64,000 bases of DNA, from assembly GCA_003514005.1 (NCBI GenBank), contig DOSJ01000006.1, forward strand, positions 66,281 through 130,280, written 5' to 3'. A program made the position numbers and the translations under genes. A model generated the notes under the pieces. The model saw only the letters and a program-made list of their open reading frames with translations, was not told the DNA's origin and did no database searches. This DNA comes from Candidatus Falkowbacteria bacterium (lineage in GTDB: Bacteria > Patescibacteriota > Patescibacteriia > Patescibacteriales > UBA12075). This document shows positions 2,264 through 45,302 of the stretch, piece by piece. How positions within the stretch are numbered: position 1 is the first letter of the stretch; each line of letters opens with the position of its first letter.

Positions 2264-3436
2264 CTAAATTAAGTTATTCTCAAAACGATCAAAGGCTTCA
2301 TTAATATCTTCTGGCTTGCGTCCAAAGCTTAAGCGGATATGGCCTTCGCCGTTTGGTCCGAAAGCTGAACCGGGAACAACCGCGACATGAGTTTTTTCCA
2401 AAAGTGCCAAAGCGTATTCCCAGGAATCAGGTATCGCGCTATTTTTTTGTTCCGTAAAATCGCGCAATATTTTTGGAAAAACATAATACGCGCTTTCCGG
2501 TCGGATATAGGAAAAAAATCGTGACAGGCGATCAAGCCTTTTGCAGATTAAATCGCGTCTTTTAGCATACTCTATATTGAATGCGGATACATCGCTCTCC
2601 CCCATCTCCAAGGCGCCCATGGCGGCATACTGTGAAATTACTGGCGCGCAAGTAACTAGCGAATCATGGACTTTGATTATTTCTTTGATAACCGATTCAT
2701 CACTATGTACATAGCCAACACGCCATCCGGTCATGGCATATGCCTTGGAAAAACCATAGATTCGGATGATCCTTTTTCTAAGCTCTGGAATTTCTGCTAA
2801 TGAAAATATTTTTTCATTGTTATATAAAAAATCTTTGTATACTTCATCGGTGATAATATACAAATCATGTTTTTTTGCCAACTCCGCTAATGATAAAAGC
2901 TGTTCTTTGTTATAAATCGTTCCGGTCGGATTGTTCGGATTGCAATAAAAAATTGCTCTGGTTTTATCTGTTATCGCTTTTTCATATTTATCCAACTCAA
3001 GCGCCCAGCCTTTGTCCTCGTTCAACGGGACAAAAACCGGTTTGCATCCGGACAAGATTATCACTTCGTGATAGCTGGTGTAGGTTGGTTCGGGAATTAT
3101 TATCTCATCGCCCGGGTCTGTAATCGCCAAAATAGTGGCTGTAATCCCTTCGATTGATCCGGCGGTTACGATTATCTCCTTTTCCCAATCATAAAACATA
3201 TTATCTTTCTGTAATTGCAATTCAATCAATTCCCTAAGCTCCGGCAAGCCAGGAGAAAGCGAATATTTTGCGACCACCCCTCTTTTCAAGGCCAGTTCAA
3301 CTCTCCTTTTGATACTTTCCGGTGTATCAAAACTGGGAATACCTTGTGCCAAAGATATAGAGTCCGGATATTTAGCGGCACGCAGTTCAATCTGCTTAAT
3401 TATTGATAAACGTAAATTTTTTGTTCTCTGTGACAT
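2264..3436 (-). CDS. PLP-dependent aminotransferase, class I/II (aspartate/aromatic type)
   Basis: NPNNPTG motif and the PLP-lysine context FSKAYAMTGWRVGY. Full length of 390 aa. Confidence 0.85.
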   Translation of the reverse strand: MSQRTKNLRLSIIKQIELRAAKYPDSISLAQGIPSFDTPESIKRRVELALKRGVVAKYSLSPGLPELRELIELQLQKDNMFYDWEKEIIVTAGSIEGITATILAITDPGDEIIIPEPTYTSYHEVIILSGCKPVFVPLNEDKGWALELDKYEKAITDKTRAIFYCNPNNPTGTIYNKEQLLSLAELAKKHDLYIITDEVYKDFLYNNEKIFSLAEIPELRKRIIRIYGFSKAYAMTGWRVGYVHSDESVIKEIIKVHDSLVTCAPVISQYAAMGALEMGESDVSAFNIEYAKRRDLICKRLDRLSRFFSYIRPESAYYVFPKILRDFTEQKNSAIPDSWEYALALLEKTHVAVVPGSAFGPNGEGHIRLSFGRKPEDINEAFDRFENNLI

Positions 3437-3484: not shown

Positions 3485-3729
3485 TGTCATTCCCGCGAAG
3501 GCGGGAATCTTGGTCTAACAATAACAAAGCGTTTTTTATAGTATGTTTGTCATAAAACCATTTTATCATATCCTTATTTTATTATTTTAGCACCGAGATT
3601 CCCGATCATTTAATATCTATTCCCTGCGGGGCTATGGAATGTCGGGAATGACAAAATATATTACCCATATAATTATCTAAAGAACCAATATTTACTCCCT
3701 GCGGGGCTATTGTGTGTCGGGAATGACAA
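3485..3729 (+). repeat. MITE-like hairpin repeat, copy 1 (type B with extra terminal half-unit)
   Basis: Begins tgtcattcccgcgaaggcgggaatcttggt. Ends with two copies of tccctgcggggcta..gtgtcgggaatgacaa. Intergenic between the aminotransferase start and the serS stop. Confidence 0.9.
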
Positions 3730-3795: not shown

Positions 3796-5115
3796 TTATT
3801 TCAATCTTTTTATCACACTAATATTATTTGGCATGAATTTGCGCAATACTTCGGGAATAATAACAGAACCGTCTGCCTGCTGAAAATTTTCCAATATCGC
3901 AATCATCGGTCTAATCGATGGCAGAGCGGTGTCGTTCAACATGTAGACAAATTTATTTTCACCGTCCTTGGTTTTGTATTTTACATTTAGCCGTCTGGAT
4001 TGCCAGTCAAGAAAATTCGAAGCCGAACCGGTTTCACCGTAGCCATTGCGAGATGGCATCCAAGCTTCCAAATCAAACATCTTGTATTTACCGGCACTCA
4101 TATCGCCGGTACAAATCTGCAGGACTCGGTAAGGCAAACCCAGTTCTTGATGGATTTCTTTTGATATTTCAACCATCTCCATATGCAAACGGTTAGACTC
4201 CTCAATATCGGCAGAGCAAATGCATACCTGTTCAACCTTCATAAATTCATGTACACGGTAAAGGCCTTTGGTGTCCTTGCCATAAGAGCCGATTTCCGAA
4301 CGATAACATTGTGAAAAACCGCAAAATTTGATTGGCAGCTGTTTTTCATCCAAAATCTCATTGGCATAGTAGGCTAACAAAGACGGCTCAGCCGTTCCGA
4401 TTAAAAATTTATCTTCTTTATTCTTATTGCCATCAGCCTCAACTTCTTCGTTGGCAATTTTGTAAATCTCATCTACTTCCGGATTATACTTCCGTCCCGA
4501 AAAATAGCCTGAACCAAACAGCGCGAATTCGCGCACCAAGGTCGGCGGAATCATAGGTGAAAAACCTTTGCCAATCAGCTTTTCCAAAGCATACATCATC
4601 AAAGCCATCTGCAGGCTAACCGCTTCGTTTTTTACATAATAGCCACGATAACCGGCGATTTTCGCGCCACGCTCCAAATCAAACAAATCCAAATCCTGCG
4701 CAATCTCGACATGGCTCTTGGGCGTAAAATCAAATTTGGTCGGCTCGCCCCATTTGAATATTTCCACGTTTTCCGAATCGTCTTTGCCGATTGGCGTATC
4801 CTCGGACGTAATTGTCGGTACCTTAACCATCAACTCCTCGTATTTTATCGTAATATCGCTAAGCGCATTTTCCAGCTCCAAAATTCTCTCTTTAATTTCT
4901 TTTCCTTTTTTTATCTGCTCTTCACTTGGCCGTTCTTTGCCCGCGCTTTTTGCCAATTCATTGCGTTCCGCCCGCAAAGTGTCAGCATCAGTTTGAAATT
5001 TTCTTCTTTTTTCATCGATCTCAAGAAGCAAATCAATATCAATTGAAATATTTTTATTCTTTGCTGCTTCTTTAACCTTGTTTAAATTATCTTTTATGTA
5101 TTTTATGTCTAGCAT
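3796..5115 (-). CDS. serS: seryl-tRNA synthetase
   Basis: N-terminal coiled-coil arm plus a class II core (FCGFSQCYRSEIGSYGKDTKGLYRVHEF...). 439 aa. Confidence 0.95.
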   Translation of the reverse strand: MLDIKYIKDNLNKVKEAAKNKNISIDIDLLLEIDEKRRKFQTDADTLRAERNELAKSAGKERPSEEQIKKGKEIKERILELENALSDITIKYEELMVKVPTITSEDTPIGKDDSENVEIFKWGEPTKFDFTPKSHVEIAQDLDLFDLERGAKIAGYRGYYVKNEAVSLQMALMMYALEKLIGKGFSPMIPPTLVREFALFGSGYFSGRKYNPEVDEIYKIANEEVEADGNKNKEDKFLIGTAEPSLLAYYANEILDEKQLPIKFCGFSQCYRSEIGSYGKDTKGLYRVHEFMKVEQVCICSADIEESNRLHMEMVEISKEIHQELGLPYRVLQICTGDMSAGKYKMFDLEAWMPSRNGYGETGSASNFLDWQSRRLNVKYKTKDGENKFVYMLNDTALPSIRPMIAILENFQQADGSVIIPEVLRKFMPNNISVIKRLK

Positions 5116-5139
5116 AATGTTTAAGTTAAAAGTAAAAAG

Positions 5140-6648
5140 TTATAAAGTTATTTTCTGATCATGTTTAACAGGAAGCTTAGGCTTTACCAAGGGGAATAAA
5201 GCAATTTCACGTACCGGCTTGTTTGCTAAAAACGCAAAGAAGCGTTCACCAAATCCGAATCCGCAAGTTGGTGGCATGCCGTATTCCAGCATTTCCACAA
5301 ATTCCCAATCAGGCATCATGGCCTCGCTGTCCCCTGCTTCAAATAACTTTTGCTGAGCTTCGAAGCGGGATTTTTGATCAAGCGGATTATTCAGCTCGGA
5401 ATAACCATTGCCAATTTCCGCCCCGGCGATTAATATCTGAAACCTCTCGGTCAATTCAGGATTGTCTTCTTTGGCTTTTGCAAGCGGTGAAACCAGCTTT
5501 GGATGGTTGATTAAAAAGGCGGGACCCGATATTGTTTTTCGACAATATTTCCAAAGTGTATCCGTAAGTCTTTCTTTGTTATCCCCTTCGTACTTCACAT
5601 GCAGTTCTTCAAGCTTCTTTTTCATTTCCGATTCCGTAGCGTTTAAAACGTCTATTCCGGTCTTTTCCAAAACAGCCGTGCGATAATCGATTGTCGGCCA
5701 CTCTCCTGACAAATCAAACTTGTGTCCCCTGCTTTCAAAAACATAGGTTCCAAAAACTTCCATCGCGATTGTCTGATAAAGTTCTTTGGTCAACTTCATA
5801 CCGTCCTCATAATTGGCATAAGCCCAATAAAATTCCATATTGGTGAATTCCTGAACATGCTCGGGACTGCTTCCCTCGTTGCGATAAACGCGTCCGATTT
5901 CAAAAGTTTTTTCAAATCCGGCGACCATAAGCCTTTTTTGCCAAAGCTCGCCAACGGAAATCCGCAAAAAAACATTCAAATCAAAATCTTTGTGATGAGT
6001 CGCAAAGGGATTTGCCTCGGCGCCGCCGGTAGTTGTTTCGAGAGTCGGCGTTTCTACTTCAAAAAAGCCTTTTGCCTTCATGAAGTTGCGGGTAACATCC
6101 CAAAATTTTGCCTTTTTCTGAAAAAGATCTTTTAATTCCGGGTTCATAAGCATATCCAAATACCGTTTGCGAAATTTTTCTTCCTCGTTCTTAAGCCCAT
6201 GCCATTTATCCGGCAATGGCCTGATTGCCTTTGTCAAAAGCGTAAAGTTTTTTACCATCAGGCTCTTTTCACCGCGATGCGTAGTAAAACATGTCCCGCT
6301 GATTTCAATAAAATCACCAACATCAACCAGATCGCTAAATATATCGTATGCTTCTTTGCCCAAATCTTTTTTGGAAAAAGCCGCTTGAATAGTACCGCTA
6401 AAATCCTCGAGATTAGCAAAACTAAGGTTGCCATGGCTACGCTTACTGCGCAAACGCCCCGCGATTATTACCTCGGTCTGAAATTCAAAAAGCTCGTCAA
6501 ATTTTTCTATCACCTGTTTGACCAAGGTGTTCCGTTTTGATTTTGCCGGATAAGCATTGACATTCATTTTTCCCAAAGCCTTAAGTTTTTCCAAGCGATC
6601 CGCTTTTTCACTGGTTTTTATTTCCGGATTTTTTTCAATATTTTCCAT
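5140..6648 (-). CDS. lysS: lysyl-tRNA synthetase, class II
   Basis: OB-fold N-domain plus class II motifs (FFEVETPTLE, GRVYRNEGSSPEHVQEFTNMEFY, GFGFGERF). 502 aa. Confidence 0.95.
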   Translation of the reverse strand: MENIEKNPEIKTSEKADRLEKLKALGKMNVNAYPAKSKRNTLVKQVIEKFDELFEFQTEVIIAGRLRSKRSHGNLSFANLEDFSGTIQAAFSKKDLGKEAYDIFSDLVDVGDFIEISGTCFTTHRGEKSLMVKNFTLLTKAIRPLPDKWHGLKNEEEKFRKRYLDMLMNPELKDLFQKKAKFWDVTRNFMKAKGFFEVETPTLETTTGGAEANPFATHHKDFDLNVFLRISVGELWQKRLMVAGFEKTFEIGRVYRNEGSSPEHVQEFTNMEFYWAYANYEDGMKLTKELYQTIAMEVFGTYVFESRGHKFDLSGEWPTIDYRTAVLEKTGIDVLNATESEMKKKLEELHVKYEGDNKERLTDTLWKYCRKTISGPAFLINHPKLVSPLAKAKEDNPELTERFQILIAGAEIGNGYSELNNPLDQKSRFEAQQKLFEAGDSEAMMPDWEFVEMLEYGMPPTCGFGFGERFFAFLANKPVREIALFPLVKPKLPVKHDQKITL

Positions 6649-11781: not shown

Positions 11782-11898
11782 TGTCATTCCCGCGTAGGCG
11801 GGAATCTTGGTGAAAAAATAATCAGTTATTTTTTCACCAAGATTCCCGATCATTTAATATTTATTCCCTGCGGGGCTGAGGTGTGTCGGGAATGACAA
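11782..11898 (+). repeat. MITE-like hairpin repeat, copy 2 (type B)
   Basis: tgtcattcccgcgtaggcgggaatcttggtg ... caccaagattcccgatcatttaatatttattccctgcggggctgaggtgtgtcgggaatgacaa. Intergenic. Confidence 0.9.
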
Positions 11899-13497: not shown

Positions 13498-13501
13498 ATA
13501 G

Positions 13502-14058
13502 TATCAAGGCAAGCTATAAGCCGGATTCTGTTCCCATAAAAACACTGCGTGTTCACGGGAGGCAATCATTTATCTAGCCCTAAAATTGCTTCTAGGGTCA
13601 TGCGAGCCACTTTTTTCCATCTTCACCTTGCATCCTGCTAACTCAGCCTTTTGGGCCTTGTCCACCGAAGCTTTAGCGTAGGTGGATTTGCTCTTGCTTT
13701 AGGCAGGGTTTACCACGTACACTCTGTCACCAGAGGACGACGCTTGTAGCCTTTTATCTCGAGAACAAAAAACACCAAGCGTCTTTTCACCTTTCCCCCG
13801 CTCCTCGAAAGAAACGAAGTAGTATTGTCTCTGTGGCACTTTCCCTCGCTTTAACTAAAAAATCTTTAAACAAAACCTAAATTGTAAAACAAATTTACAT
13901 TCGGGCCTGCCCGCCGAAGCTTTAGCGTATGGCGGGTGGGCGTTACCCACTGCCGCTTTCCTCGCGTGGGAAGCAAAGCTTCTCTACGCGGTTCAAAGTC
14001 CGGACTTTCCTCCCCTATTCAATAAAAAATAAGAGCGATCACCCGCTTACCTTGATAT
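13502..14058 (-). ncRNA. rnpB: RNase P RNA (bacterial type A-like), unusually long (~557 nt)
   Basis: Minus strand reads GGAGGAAAGUCCGG (14000-14013), GGGUAACGCC, GGGAAAGUGCCACAGAGAC and ACAGAAUCCGGCUUAU (13516-13531). P1 pairing: UAUCAAGGUAAGC with GCUUGCCUUGAUA. Confidence 0.9.
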
Positions 14059-17115: not shown

Positions 17116-18051
17116 TTATACCCGCGAATACTTCCTGACCGCTATCAAACTCGCAACGATATTGATAAGGGCGGCGGCCAGGAATTGGAGTCCGAAAATA
17201 TTGAATGCGTTGCCGTAGAAATAGGTTATCAGATTTATATTGTAACCGACAAAAAAGGTTTCCAGATATGGCTGAAGCAAGCTTAGGAATGGATAAAAAA
17301 TAACCATGATAGCGAGCACGCCGAAAAGCGTGTAAATAATGCTTGAAACCAGGTATGGCATTTGGATAAAATAATTGGATGCGCCGACCAGCTTCATGAT
17401 GGAAATTTGACGACGGTGTGTGTAGATTGCGACGCGGACGGAATTGTATATGACAAGCATTGTGATAAAAACGAAAATCGAGCTAAGCATCAAACCGGCA
17501 TCGGTTACTTTCTTTGTGATGTTGTTGATTTTTCCCAGCAGAGTTTTGTAGTTGGTAAAATTGCGCGACTCGATTATTTCACTGTCATAAGCGTTCAGCT
17601 TATTGATCAAATTATCAAACACGTCCAGATTAACCGGCTTAATAACCATTGTCGGGGTCAAGGGATTGATATTCAGCTCGCGCAAAGCACCAAGTATTTC
17701 TTGGTTCTCTTTGTGTTTTTCCGTAAAATTTTTCAAAGCGGCCTCTTTTGAAACATAAGTAACTTCTTTGACTTCGCTTAGCTCGGAAATCTTGGCTTTC
17801 AGCGCCAAAATTTCTTCTTCTTTCGCGTCTGTTTTTAGATAAAGATTAATATCAATCTTGTCATGCACAGCGCCAACAGCGGTTTCGCCGACTACACTTA
17901 CTACCAAAAGCATATTCACGGTGAACAAGGCAAGAATCAAAATGATTATCGTAACCAAAGACAGCCAGATATTACGAAAAATATCTTGAAAACTAAATTT
18001 GATTATTCTTGCGAAAGATAGAAACATATTTTTAATTAAAAATTTTGTCAT
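17116..18051 (-). CDS. ftsX: cell division permease-like protein FtsX
   Basis: 4-TM FtsX topology with a large extracytoplasmic loop, adjacent to ftsE. The called ATG lies inside the repeat at 18046-18182, so the Met 8 codons downstream (MFLSFARI) is an alternative start. Confidence 0.85.
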   Translation of the reverse strand: MTKFLIKNMFLSFARIIKFSFQDIFRNIWLSLVTIIILILALFTVNMLLVVSVVGETAVGAVHDKIDINLYLKTDAKEEEILALKAKISELSEVKEVTYVSKEAALKNFTEKHKENQEILGALRELNINPLTPTMVIKPVNLDVFDNLINKLNAYDSEIIESRNFTNYKTLLGKINNITKKVTDAGLMLSSIFVFITMLVIYNSVRVAIYTHRRQISIMKLVGASNYFIQMPYLVSSIIYTLFGVLAIMVIFYPFLSLLQPYLETFFVGYNINLITYFYGNAFNIFGLQFLAAALINIVASLIAVRKYSRV

Positions 18052-18182
18052 TCCCGCGAAGGCGGGAATCTTGGTTAAAAAATAAACAAATTATTTTACT
18101 ATAACATTCATTTTAAGAGCATTTTTATTATCCTCAATCGCCTATCTTTTCACCAAGATTCCCGCCTTCGCGGGAATGACAA
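18046..18182 (+). repeat. MITE-like hairpin repeat, copy 3 (type A, full terminal inverted repeats)
   Basis: tgtcattcccgcgaaggcgggaatcttggt ... caccaagattcccgccttcgcgggaatgacaa. Fills the ftsE-ftsX intergenic gap. Confidence 0.9.
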
Positions 18183-20823: not shown

Positions 20824-20975
20824 TGTCATTCCCGCGTAGGCGGGAATCTTGGTGAAAAAATAATTAGATATTTATTCACCAAGATTCCCGATCATTTAAT
20901 ATTTATTCCCTGCGGGGCTATGGAGTGTCGGGAATGACAAAATATTTTAACCATAAAATTATCTAAAGAACCAAA
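20824..20975 (+). repeat. MITE-like hairpin repeat, copy 4 (type B)
   Basis: Same arms as copy 2. The 3' tail aatattttaaccataaaattatctaaagaaccaa is shared with copy 1. Confidence 0.9.
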
Positions 20976-21081: not shown

Positions 21082-21152
21082 GCGAGCGTAGTATAATGGT
21101 AATACGCGACCTTCCCAAGGTTGAGTCGTGGGTTCGATTCCCATCGCTCGCT
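21082..21152 (+). tRNA. tRNA-Gly (CCC)
   Basis: Manual cloverleaf: GCGAGCG/CGCTCGC acceptor, anticodon loop TTCCCAA, T arm GTGGG-TTCGATT-CCCAT, discriminator T. CCA not encoded. Confidence 0.85.
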
Positions 21153-21155
21153 CAG

Positions 21156-21214
21156 GTGATTTTCGATTTTCGATTTACGATTTTTTAAATCGTAAATCGT
21201 AAATCATAAATCGC
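21156..21214 (+). repeat. long hairpin of 7-nt words in the tRNA-Gly/tRNA-Thr spacer
   Basis: gattttc gattttc gatttac gatttt / aaatcgt aaatcgt aaatcat aaatcgc. About 27 bp with 3 mismatches by hand pairing. Confidence 0.8.
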
Positions 21215-21224
21215 AAATCCCAAC

Positions 21225-21297
21225 GCCGAAATAGCTCAATTGGTAGAGCAATCCCTTCGTAAGGGAGAGGTTGTCGGTTCAAGTCCGATTTTCGGCT
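21225..21297 (+). tRNA. tRNA-Thr (CGT)
   Basis: Manual cloverleaf: GCCGAAA/TTTCGGC acceptor, anticodon loop TTCGTAA, T arm GTCGG-TTCAAGT-CCGAT, discriminator T. CCA not encoded. Confidence 0.85.
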
Positions 21298-21314
21298 CAA
21301 TCATTATCCGTGCA

Positions 21315-43234: not shown

Positions 43235-43262
43235 ATAAATTTAAATGAATTAATTAATATTT

Positions 43263-43396
43263 TGTCATTCCCGCGCAGGCGGGAATCTTGGTTAAAAAAT
43301 AACAAATTATTTTTACTATACGTGTTTAATAAAATCATTATATGTTATTTATATTTATCTATCGCAACACCGAGATTCCCGCCTGCGCGGGAATGA
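43263..43396 (+). repeat. MITE-like hairpin repeat, copy 5 (type A)
   Basis: tgtcattcccgcgcaggcgggaatcttggt ... caccgagattcccgcctgcgcgggaatga. Lies between the T-box terminator and the thrS ATG. Confidence 0.9.
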
Positions 43397-43508
43397 AAGG
43401 TAGTAGCGCTTTATTTCAAAAAAACAAAAGCTTCTTCGAGCCTCAAACTATAATATTTATTTTCTAAACAATTAGACATTAGACAATATAATTTAGATAT
43501 TTTTTATT

Positions 43509-43692
43509 AAAAAACCCCCTCCTGGTGTATCAAAAAATTTTCAATACACCGGGACGAGGTTAATCGCGGTTCCACCCGGTTTCTCTGATACAATATCAGA
43601 GCACTTTTTTATTATCAAACAAAACTTAGTTCTGCTTTCGCAAAATATTTATACAACATCACGGTTGGTAGCCGTAACAATCGTTTATTTGA
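43509..43692 (-). promoter_or_regulatory. T-box riboswitch leader (Thr, candidate specifier ACU) with intrinsic terminator
   Basis: Minus strand reads AAACCGGGUGGAACCGCGAUUAACCUCGUCCCGG, with the T-box GGGUGGAACCGCG at 43565-43577. Terminator ACCUCGUCCCGGUGUAU...AUACACCAGGAGGGGGU + U6 (43509-43560). Stem III CUCUGAUA/UAUCAGAG. GAACUAA sits above a basal helix AUCAAAUAAAC/GUUUUGUUUGAU (ACU at 43628-43630). Confidence 0.75.
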
Positions 43693-43699
43693 TATTTAT

Positions 43700-43728
43700 A
43701 TATTATTCCAAAATTCAAAAAATGTCAA
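43700..43728 (-). promoter_or_regulatory. sigma70-like promoter of the thrS leader
   Basis: Minus strand: TTGACA (43723-43728), 17 nt spacer, TAATAT (43700-43705). The -35 overlaps the stop codon of the upstream GT2 gene. Confidence 0.6.
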
Positions 43729-45302
43729 CGGCTTTTCGGCGTTACAAAAAACCCAAGATATTTTCCGAACATCAATCGTGTCTGTGAATCTAGGCCAGGG
43801 ATAGAGCCAAAAATTATAATGCTAATCGGCAGGACAATCCATTGCAACAGCATGCCGGCGTGCTTGAAAAAACCATATTTTTTTGGTTTTGGCGGTAAAA
43901 GGATTGTGGAAAGAATGGCGGAAAGAACAAGGCCGGACATAGCGATAATCATTAATGTTCTCGTAACAAAAGGCAGGTTTGTGGATAACACGGTGGAGTT
44001 GAAACGATCTCCGCCCAAGAGCATTGGCATCCAGCCGATTACGCCGATTATCAAGGCATTGGTTGCCCAAGAATGAAAACCGTAGAGTTGAACAAATATC
44101 CGGCTAATCACCTTTCCTTTTGGCATTTTTGACCAGCGGTCTTTGGCGTTAAAAATAAGATACGGAATATTTTCAACACCCCAGCCCCAGCGTCTTTGTT
44201 GTTTGTATAAATTCTTGGCAGTTTGCCAAGCAGTATTATCCATTGTTACATCCATGGACACCGGATAATAAAGCGGTTCCACCCGATAGTCGCCGTTATA
44301 GTAACAAAAGCAATGCCAAAATATTCGCGAGTCTTCACTTACCATTGTCTTTGACCACAATCCAACCTCAACCAAGGCGCGCCATGTCATAGAATGCGAT
44401 GAATAGGTCGCAAGCTTTTCTTGTCTGATCTGTTGCATCATCTGCCAAAAAGTATTGGAGCTCGCGGCTACGCGCGCAAAAAACGGCGCTTGCCAAACAT
44501 TGTTATGATAAACCGGAATCGGCTGATAGCTGGCGCGATATGGATTTTCTGTTGTCAAAAATCGGTATGTCAAACAATAAAAATAATCGGGATATATAAT
44601 AGTGTCTATATCAAAAACGCTTACTATTATTTTATCATAATCAATATTTTCCTTATCAATCAAATCTTTTTTTATCACTTCCGCGCCCCAAGACTGATTA
44701 GCGCCCTTACCTTTTAGCTCGCCGACCAATCCATCAGGATGAATAGTGATAATAAAATTGCGAAAATATTTTTCATATTCTTTCTTAACAATCTCTGCCC
44801 GTTCTTTCAACTCAACTCCGCCTCGTTCTTCGATAGACAAAAGAATAATCATATTGTCACTGGAATACGCGGAATCGGCAATCGCCTTTATGCTTGTTCT
44901 AATAACCTCCAAGCTTTCCAATGCGATTGGAAAAATTACCAAATGAATAATGTCATCAACGCTTAGATTTATCGATATAGTTTCCCCAGTTTCATGATCG
45001 GTTCGCGTAAGAGCTTGCGGTTTTAAATTTTTTAATTTTTCACGCCAATTAATTGCCGTATTTTCTTTTATTTTGTAATAAGACGAAATCAAATGTATAC
45101 CAAGATACACAACCAAAAGGAGCCAATAAACATCAAAAGCGATAATAAAAAATGCTACCCAAACTGGATAAATATAAGAAAAGATAAATAGTAAAAGCAA
45201 TGTTGACCATGATAAAACGCCTGGCAAAATTTCCAGTGCGCGATATAGCTTTCGGTCTCGTCCAGACAACTCACTAGCCTTTCCGATTTTTAAATAGTTC
45301 AT
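43725..45302 (-). CDS. processive family-2 glycosyltransferase, membrane-embedded (cellulose/chitin synthase-like)
   Basis: N- and C-terminal TM helices. D-containing motifs (VFDIDT) and a QxxRW-type motif (KQQRRWGWG). Confidence 0.75.
   Translation of the reverse strand: MNYLKIGKASELSGRDRKLYRALEILPGVLSWSTLLLLFIFSYIYPVWVAFFIIAFDVYWLLLVVYLGIHLISSYYKIKENTAINWREKLKNLKPQALTRTDHETGETISINLSVDDIIHLVIFPIALESLEVIRTSIKAIADSAYSSDNMIILLSIEERGGVELKERAEIVKKEYEKYFRNFIITIHPDGLVGELKGKGANQSWGAEVIKKDLIDKENIDYDKIIVSVFDIDTIIYPDYFYCLTYRFLTTENPYRASYQPIPVYHNNVWQAPFFARVAASSNTFWQMMQQIRQEKLATYSSHSMTWRALVEVGLWSKTMVSEDSRIFWHCFCYYNGDYRVEPLYYPVSMDVTMDNTAWQTAKNLYKQQRRWGWGVENIPYLIFNAKDRWSKMPKGKVISRIFVQLYGFHSWATNALIIGVIGWMPMLLGGDRFNSTVLSTNLPFVTRTLMIIAMSGLVLSAILSTILLPPKPKKYGFFKHAGMLLQWIVLPISIIIFGSIPGLDSQTRLMFGKYLGFFVTPKSR

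Follow-up and report, generated by a model that had tools for sequence, protein, structure and literature searches.

The gene for threonyl-tRNA synthetase (ThrRS), thrS, of a Candidatus Falkowbacteria bacterium is preceded by a leader that ends in the manner of a T-box riboswitch and begins in an unfamiliar one, which raises the questions of whether this leader senses tRNA-Thr and with which triplet it would do so. The DNA analysed here, called the window, is a stretch of 64,000 nucleotides (positions 66,281 to 130,280 of contig DOSJ01000006.1) belonging to a 165.5-kb scaffold from a groundwater metagenome. The minus strand of 43509-43728 carries TTGACA-17 nt-TAATAT, a leader of approximately 185 nt and then GGGGGUUUUUU. 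A preliminary description had proposed a T-box leader upstream of thrS in a genome of the candidate phyla radiation (CPR, Patescibacteria). This proposal was upheld by a significant match to the Rfam T-box model RF00230, by the assignment of the downstream protein to TIGR00418 and by the closest ThrRSs, all of which come from metagenome-assembled genomes (MAGs) of Patescibacteria. The elements that it had listed (promoter, GAACUAA, Stem III, T-box core, CCGGG/CCCGG, terminator and U6) were all present on the minus strand at the place given. On sequence evidence, the leader is very probably a T-box riboswitch that senses tRNA-Thr and regulates thrS through attenuation of transcription.

The identification is carried by the 3′ half of the leader, the part in which T-boxes agree: they all share practically the same discriminator domain and vary in Stem I and Stem II (PMC7583486). 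In E-value mode, RF00230 matched 43547-43697 of the minus strand with 48 bits, at an E-value of 2.3e-9 for the local search and of 1.9e-7 for both strands of the whole window. Stem III and the antiterminator aligned near-perfectly, with high posterior probability at the antiterminator. Stem III (CUCUGAUA-UUG-UAUCAGAG, 43601-43583) stands between the purine string AAGUG and a trailing AA, which are the flanks (RRRxG and AA) expected of this element, and the whole unit spans 43606-43581; AAGNG and the trailing AA recur in the relatives described below. The T-box core that follows, GGGUGGAACCGCG, has one exact match in the window, upstream of thrS. Its 7-nt bulge UGGAACC (43574-43568), composed as in a T-box of UGGN and ACC, lies between helix A1, in which 43579-43575 pairs with 43553-43549, and helix A2, in which 43567-43564 pairs with 43557-43554.

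The 3′ strands of these helices also belong to a competing structure. When the nascent RNA was folded up to the 3′ strand of A1, its minimum-free-energy (MFE) structure consisted of Stem III and the antiterminator, with the 7-nt bulge unpaired (−20.3 kcal/mol). The terminator hairpin (21 pairs, three internal mismatches, −26.5 kcal/mol) includes the 3′ strands of A2 and A1 in its 5′ arm, so that terminator and antiterminator are mutually exclusive, as in the expression platform of a T-box. This alternation, already part of the preliminary description, was confirmed by folding the full-length leader with and without the antiterminator enforced (−29.2 and −40.2 kcal/mol, respectively). The terminator fold is the more stable by 11 kcal/mol, which indicates a default-OFF arrangement needing a ligand to hold the antiterminator. 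The leader as a whole folds with a z-score of −6.0 relative to shuffled sequences. The promoter was assigned solely by its agreement with the consensus (10/12), and the transcription start is placed from it; the −35 element overlaps the stop codon of an upstream glycosyltransferase-like open reading frame (ORF; 43725-45302).

A search of species-representative genomes with the window ThrRS as query yielded 80 loci. Of these, the 50-odd nearest all belong to MAGs of Patescibacteria (Moraniibacteriota, Paceibacterota, Falkowbacteria, Gracilibacteria and others); the others come from Elusimicrobia and Cloacimonadota. UGGAACC(G/A)CG was found on the coding strand upstream of thrS in 30 of the approximately 56 Patescibacteria loci, each time with a G+C-rich hairpin and a U-run, and the bulge starts with UGGA in every leader of this genome set. 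Twenty-three decoding domains were aligned using MAFFT, with both anchors placed gap-free (alignment A1), and a covariance model built from A1 (R1) was run on the window and the 80 loci. This model recovered 28 true junction-type decoding domains, all upstream of thrS, including three held-out members and two (L017 and L055) whose core had been missed by the regular expression, and it gave no match in the non-Patescibacteria loci of the 80. Metagenomic sequences were scanned with the pattern GATTG-N6-CT-NNN-AA-N6-T-N{55,85}-GGTGG-N-ACCGCG, in which the loop triplet and the discriminator-pairing base were left free. At least 119 matches were obtained; the figures given here refer to the matches listed, among which are 96 distinct leaders. 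Where enough downstream sequence was available, a ThrRS gene lay directly downstream in 109 of 116 listed matches. In all, more than 120 other contigs have this element in front of thrS.

The expression platform is maintained across these relatives. A hairpin with a U-run was present in all 31 leaders inspected by eye, 25 of which retained all nine antiterminator pairs, and helix A1 covaried among them (CCGGG/CCCGG, CUAGA/UCUAG and UUGAG/CUCAA). A run of at least five U followed the core in 85 of the 96 distinct metagenomic leaders.

Three features of individual relatives deserve mention in their own right. Loci L123, L140, L150 and L156 (also L173, L184 and L195) have junction-type T-boxes before short ThrRS genes of approximately 407-420 aa, whose match starts at approximately residue 160-185 of the window ThrRS, so that the N-terminal TGS/editing region appears to be missing; L140 and L150 have a UGGG bulge, and L123 and L156 are the two ACG-specifier members discussed below. 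In some relatives a small gene stands between the T-box terminator and thrS (L002, approximately 2440-3014; L009, approximately 2430-2974; L049, 2393-2986). This gene encodes a GNAT acetyltransferase (PF13302) in L002 and a DUF2238 membrane protein in L049, the start of the ORF in L009 resembles that in L002, and such a T-box would control a two-gene operon. Finally, the T-boxes of thrS in L034, L035 and L036 (probably also L027 and L009) appear to have a long Stem I of the canonical type, with ACC-A in an internal loop; these long-Stem-I leaders of Patescibacteria are also under the Rfam gathering score, and both architectures coexist in the phylum.

The 5′ half of the leader has an order of elements that is conserved among the junction-type relatives: the 5′ strand of helix P1, GAUU, a 7-bp hairpin with a heptaloop, one or two variable hairpins, CUAA and the 3′ strand of P1, after which follow the A-rich linker, AAGNG, Stem III, AA and the T-box core (Table 1). 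Hairpin A is degenerate in the window, which makes the domain a three-way junction here, and relatives with a hairpin A of 4-5 bp have a four-way junction. RNAfold of the insert assigned 56 of the 96 metagenomic leaders to the three-way form and 38 to the four-way form. The heptaloop has rare variants in the genome set (UUACCAA, UUACCAG and UCACCAA).

Table 1. Positions of the leader elements, the regulated gene and the tRNA-Thr gene in the window
Feature	Position	Strand	Details and basis
Sigma-70-like promoter	43700..43728	−	−35 TTGACA 43728-43723, 17-nt spacer, −10 TAATAT 43705-43700
P1 5′ strand UAUCAAAUAAAC	43683..43694	−	pairs with 43625-43613; MFE fold, covariation in 23 relatives
J1 junction strand GAUU	43679..43682	−	conserved; variants AAUU, AGUU and GAUC in relatives
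Specifier hairpin (ultrashort Stem I)	43658..43678	−	stem GUUACGG/CCGUGAU, heptaloop CUACCAA 43671-43665, ACC 43669-43667 followed by A
Degenerate remnant of hairpin A, GUUGUAUAAAUA	43646..43657	−	4-5-bp hairpin at this place in many relatives
Hairpin B, UUUUGC-GAAA-GCAGAA	43630..43645	−	fold; sequence and loop variable among relatives
J2 junction strand CUAA	43626..43629	−	invariant or near-invariant columns in A1
P1 3′ strand GUUUUGUUUGAUA	43613..43625	−	fold, covariation, permutation test
A-rich linker ending in purine string AAGUG (RRRxG), Stem III, then AA	43583..43612	−	fold; motif definition in PMC7583486, Table 1
Antiterminator	43549..43579	−	A1 CCGGG/CCCGG, bulge UGGAACC, A2 GCGA/UCGU
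Intrinsic terminator	43509..43561	−	hairpin 43561-43513, then U6 43514-43509
Spacer of 274 nt, terminator to thrS	43235..43508	−	inverted repeat copies, arms 43265-43292 and 43369-43396
thrS, threonine–tRNA ligase, 602 aa	41426..43234	−	TIGR00418, 685 bits against a cutoff of 384
tRNA-Thr(CGU)	21225..21298	+	discriminator U

Both helices of this domain are supported by covariation. For P1 (8 pairs) and Stem I (7 pairs) together, 85.8% of the cells in A1 are paired, a share that drops to 30-52% in controls with the 3′ partner displaced by 1-3 columns. Double changes occur in 96 cells (16-27 in these controls), and the covariation score of 0.726 compares with a maximum of 0.234; none of 500 shuffles reached the observed values. 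Stem I taken alone has 93.8% of its cells paired and double changes at 6/7 pairs. Unguided RNAalifold on A1 predicted six pairs of Stem I, all with compensatory changes, and did not predict the long-range helix P1, so P1 is argued for by the pair counts and by a permutation test. For this independent test, 66 metagenomic leaders having one CUAA each were used; the five junction-side positions were paired in 97, 100, 95, 86 and 76% of cases, and each value exceeded the maximum of 1000 between-sequence partner permutations. Known modules were also considered for the remaining parts. On inspection, J1 and J2 did not fit the consensus of a K-turn, an S-turn/loop E, a T-loop or a J1-J2 duplex. The hairpins between Stem I and CUAA (3-7 bp, without internal loops, variable in sequence and number) were rejected as an equivalent of Stem II or the Stem IIA/B pseudoknot because they are too short and too variable, and no conserved F-box-like pairing was seen in them.

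Several points weigh against regarding this leader as a tRNA-responsive T-box. The score of 48 bits is far under the RF00230 gathering score of 93, and a gathering-threshold Rfam scan of the window reported no T-box; the covariance-model check suggested in the preliminary description was significant in its E-value and insufficient in its score. A canonical Stem I would have a K-turn, an S-turn specifier loop, an AG bulge and a distal loop whose two interdigitated T-loops (the IDTM) bind the tRNA elbow; all of these are missing, the domain being built of P1, GAUU, a 7-bp hairpin, one or two small hairpins and CUAA, and transcriptional T-boxes generally require the IDTM (PMC7583486). No gene for tRNA-Thr(GGU) was found in the window, in the 10-kb extensions on each side, in the 56 genome loci or in the 119 metagenomic loci. 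Lastly, thrS begins 274 nt past the terminator, behind a repeat pair, and an unrecognised internal promoter could bypass the switch. The low score is attributable to the absence of a canonical Stem I: in the RF00230 alignment, 80 Stem I positions of the model are deleted and Stem II is aligned with low posterior probability. None of 19 related leaders reached the gathering score either, which would explain why such leaders are missed by routine annotation.

The distance to thrS bears on whether the riboswitch still acts on this gene. A former T-box might no longer regulate thrS here if the spacer had its own promoter or otherwise uncoupled the gene. The core lies approximately 340 nt from thrS, while thrS starts within about 100-135 nt of the core in most relatives, which makes the spacer of the window look like an insertion. 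The spacer moreover carries a dispersed repeat, the 20-nt G+C-rich palindrome ATTCCCGCGNAGGCGGGAAT, which occurs at seven loci of this 37% G+C window where none is expected by chance (3489-3508, 11786-11805, 18050-18069 and 18158-18177, 20828-20847, 43267-43286 and 43375-43394). Twice it forms an inverted pair approximately 108 nt apart that makes a long hairpin, one of these pairs being in the thrS 5′ untranslated region; the palindrome looks like an element of the repetitive extragenic palindromic (REP) or miniature inverted-repeat transposable element (MITE) kind. A small hairpin-like sequence with a U-rich run (GGCUCGAAGAAGCUUUUGUUUUUUU) was seen at 43415-43450 (−) in the spacer and was not flagged by the terminator scan. 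An uncoupled relic is nevertheless hard to reconcile with a leader in which every element is intact (9/9 antiterminator pairs, 7/7 Stem I pairs, an unbroken P1 and U6). A consensus scan of the spacer gave no promoter-like site on the minus strand, and other members tolerate 270-735 nt, or a whole gene, between T-box and thrS. For these last two reasons the switch is considered functional here, and uncoupling is an unlikely explanation that leaves a small residual doubt.

The choice of the specifier was examined among two candidate triplets. The preliminary description had read the leader as a T-box of the glyQS type with the specifier ACU in GAACUAA (43632-43626), on the 3′ side of an internal loop above the basal helix, and had treated CUACCAA as a mere distal loop; it named the ACC of that loop as a fallback. 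GAACUAA does stand at the canonical specifier-loop position, and ACU is a threonine codon with A as the next base. In the structure described above, this ACU (43630-43628) consists of the last base of hairpin B and the CU of the junction strand CUAA. CUAA was left unconstrained by the search pattern and is nonetheless present in 86 of the 96 distinct metagenomic leaders listed, while the base before it is G in 41, C in 29, A in 18 and U in 8 of the 96 and takes all four identities in the genome set. Since this base varies while CUAA is fixed, ACU is not a conserved codon: most relatives would read GCU, CCU or UCU at this position, and a reading of CUA would mean leucine. CUA-A was also considered as a second (Leu) specifier and rejected as a misfit to thrS and the UGGA bulge, and as a partner of the U8-A9-G10 region of the tRNA and rejected because those tRNA bases are buried.

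The fallback triplet behaved differently. All 28 genome-set members have ACC in the heptaloop, and so do 111 of the 119 metagenome matches listed, although the triplet was left free there (112 of the 119 have UGGA). Of the matches with another triplet, five arose by chance in coding DNA of high G+C content and form no more than 2-5 of the 7 stem pairs; a sixth is a glyS T-box of the canonical kind that the pattern picked up by accident. The remaining two (L123 and L156) are true members with the loop CUACGAA, 7/7 stem pairs and ThrRS downstream; ACG is a threonine codon too. The triplet is thus fixed or synonymously changed in step with the regulated gene, as a specifier should be. ACC-A fits the amino acid of the gene and has a purine next to the codon, its context in a terminal loop being non-canonical; the canonical long-Stem-I thrS T-boxes of L034-L036 likewise show ACC-A, in an internal loop. 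ACC is also well used, accounting for 200 of the 724 threonine codons in the window. The predicted specifier is accordingly ACC in the heptaloop CUACCAA and not ACU, and the ACU reading is very improbable.

Numbered like an anticodon loop, the heptaloop C-U-ACC-A-A on its 7-bp stem carries a pyrimidine at 32 and U at 33 before the triplet, and A at both 37 and 38 after it. Anticodon loops most often have this signature. It is U33 and a purine at 37 that bring a triplet into a shape ready for pairing (PMC7583486). The likeness also suits another mode of control, in which ThrRS would bind the anticodon-arm-like hairpin and repress its own mRNA, with tRNA not being the effector.

Such autoregulation is known from the Escherichia coli thrS operator, where ThrRS binds anticodon-arm mimics in its own mRNA, and both the hairpin (7-nt loop, U33, A37 and A38) and the gene agree with it. 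The loop of the present leader, however, holds the codon ACC and none of the tRNA-Thr anticodons (GGU, UGU or CGU), and complements tRNA-Thr instead of mimicking it. The leader also has a complete covarying discriminator, whose UGGA bulge fits U73, as well as a terminator, neither of which a ThrRS operator needs, so protein autoregulation is even less credible than the ACU reading. A chance resemblance of an ordinary promoter, 5′ untranslated region and terminator-like hairpin to a T-box through a T-box-like 13-mer can be practically dismissed: the match is under the gathering score and loose versions of the core are no more frequent in the window than expected (7 found, 9.45 expected), but the single exact core lies upstream of thrS, the E-value is very low and the architecture recurs with compensatory changes before thrS in the contigs counted above.

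The bulge points to the other end of the tRNA. Its base A (UGGA) requires U as the discriminator base (U73), and the tRNA-Thr(CGU) gene at 21225 has this U, as stated in the preliminary description. Discriminator U was present in all three tRNA-Thr genes seen, namely, CGU in the window and UGU in L096 (3728-3803) and L143; the latter two genes sit on contigs bearing junction-type T-boxes. In the window, its extensions and the loci searched, CGU and UGU were the only isoacceptors found. The window's own tRNA-Thr(CGU) decodes ACG and not ACC and hence differs from the predicted ligand, and the match with a GGU anticodon is assumed from general bacterial tRNA sets. The tRNA-Thr(CGU) gene has no encoded CCA and lies 72 nt from a tRNA-Gly(CCC) gene (21082-21298, +).

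Taken together, these elements suggest the following course of events. Transcription would start just downstream of the promoter, and the first approximately 80 nt would fold as a compact junction domain in which P1 closes the 7-bp hairpin with its anticodon-loop-like CUACCAA. The ACC of the loop, which has a purine next to it, would pair with the GGU anticodon of tRNA-Thr, loop-loop kissing of the specifier hairpin with the anticodon loop being the most economical mechanism. Further 3′, Stem III and the antiterminator would form, and UGGA would pair with the free 3′ UCCA of uncharged tRNA-Thr. This pairing is proposed to stabilise the antiterminator, thereby allowing RNA polymerase to read into thrS. 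If the tRNA were charged or absent, the more stable terminator (43561-43513 and U6) would form and transcription would stop. We infer tRNA binding, tRNA-dependent readthrough and a speed that is sufficient without an elbow-binding module.

A broader proposal is that Patescibacteria widely carry, upstream of thrS, a structural class of T-box that is distinct and has not been described before, and that the present leaders define it. Its members would place an anticodon-stem-loop-mimic specifier in a three- or four-way junction and would achieve antitermination through two tRNA contacts only, the anticodon kissing loop and the 3′ NCCA end, without an elbow module, Stem II or pseudoknot. We advance this proposal tentatively, as a serious possibility that falls somewhat short of being the probable case.

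Other aminoacyl-tRNA synthetase genes of the window showed nothing comparable. lysS (5140-6648) and serS (3796-5115) are encoded in tandem on the minus strand, and only a plain promoter and a short leader stand in front of this pair (3796-6648, −). The search for further T-boxes that had been suggested at the outset found none in the window, including upstream of lysS-serS, so that within the window the T-box is specific to thrS. A class Ic aminoacyl-tRNA synthetase gene (PF00749, GluRS-like) is located on the same scaffold approximately 3-4 kb past the left window end (L200, 13632-15113). An RNase P RNA of bacterial class A was also observed at 13501-14054 (−); its 554 nt exceed the 367 positions of the model, and the Rfam alignment shows three large insertions (82, 33 and 72 nt).

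A literature search on T-boxes in Patescibacteria, CPR, Parcubacteria, Saccharibacteria and Microgenomates, with closed-access comparative papers outside its scope, found no description of them. The main text of the TBDB paper does not mention candidate phyla, and T-boxes are absent from two CPR papers in which riboswitches are mentioned. None of the present leaders is caught by annotation at the gathering threshold, and counts of T-boxes in this large bacterial branch are therefore probably too low. Patescibacteria/CPR cannot make most amino acids, and gene regulation in them is almost unexplored; the present leader is one of very few concrete mechanisms there and suggests that these bacteria monitor tRNA-Thr charging directly. 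T-boxes are a model system for RNA-RNA recognition of tRNA, and a covarying family of more than 120 members with a minimal heptaloop specifier and a terminator would offer a natural test of how little RNA is needed to read a tRNA. The compact scaffold of approximately 185 nt is also suited to structural work and engineering. In the current view, transcriptional T-boxes cannot do without a long Stem I whose elbow platform captures the tRNA fast enough, and variants with a short Stem I act on translation with the help of Stem II and a pseudoknot (PMC7583486); if the distinct class is real, it contradicts the generalisation that these T-boxes need the elbow contact.

Compared with the class I T-boxes of Firmicutes (Bacillus subtilis tyrS and thrS, glyQS; RF00230), the present leaders have the same purine string with Stem III, the same UGGN-ACC bulge between A1 and A2 and the same competing terminator. 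In both, a codon with a following purine matches the synthetase gene, and the bulge base matches the discriminator of the tRNA. The present leaders differ in having no K-turn, S-turn specifier loop, AG bulge/distal loop, Stem II or IIA/B pseudoknot, and in carrying the codon in a terminal heptaloop within a P1-closed three- or four-way junction with GAUU and CUAA. The earlier label of a glyQS-type leader cannot be retained for the same reason: the Stem I of glyQS is of full length and includes the distal module that binds the elbow, and this module is absent from the present leader.

A short Stem I without an elbow module is shared with the actinobacterial ileS T-boxes (Mycobacterium tuberculosis and Nocardia farcinica; PDB 6UFG and 6UFM in PMC7583486). 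An ultrashort Stem I is typical of these translational T-boxes, which need the S-turn of Stem II together with the IIA/B pseudoknot as a support for the codon-anticodon helix (PMC7583486), and their Stem I contains a K-turn (PMC7583486, PMC10651847). None of these features, nor the sequestration of a Shine-Dalgarno sequence, is recognisable in the present family, which has P1 with small variable hairpins and an intrinsic terminator, that is, a G+C-rich hairpin and a U-run with the start codon tens to hundreds of nucleotides downstream. This comparison with the actinobacterial class was drawn from the review and later open-access descriptions. The leader is, in sum, a new structural variant of the T-box: it has the discriminator features, it lacks the canonical Stem I and the Rfam gathering score, and it does not belong to the short actinobacterial class.

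Two further systems resemble single parts of the leader. In classical biophysics, tRNAs with complementary anticodons form loop-loop complexes in which two 7-nt loops, each with U33 and a purine at 37, are joined by three complementary pairs. The same geometry is expected for CUACCAA with the anticodon loop of tRNA-Thr(GGU); those complexes are an intermolecular curiosity, whereas here one partner is an mRNA leader and the contact would be coupled to sensing of the tRNA 3′ end. With the E. coli thrS operator, the leader shares the gene and an anticodon-arm-like hairpin. The E. coli loop represents the anticodon and binds a protein, while the loop of the present leader represents the codon and is accompanied by a full T-box discriminator.

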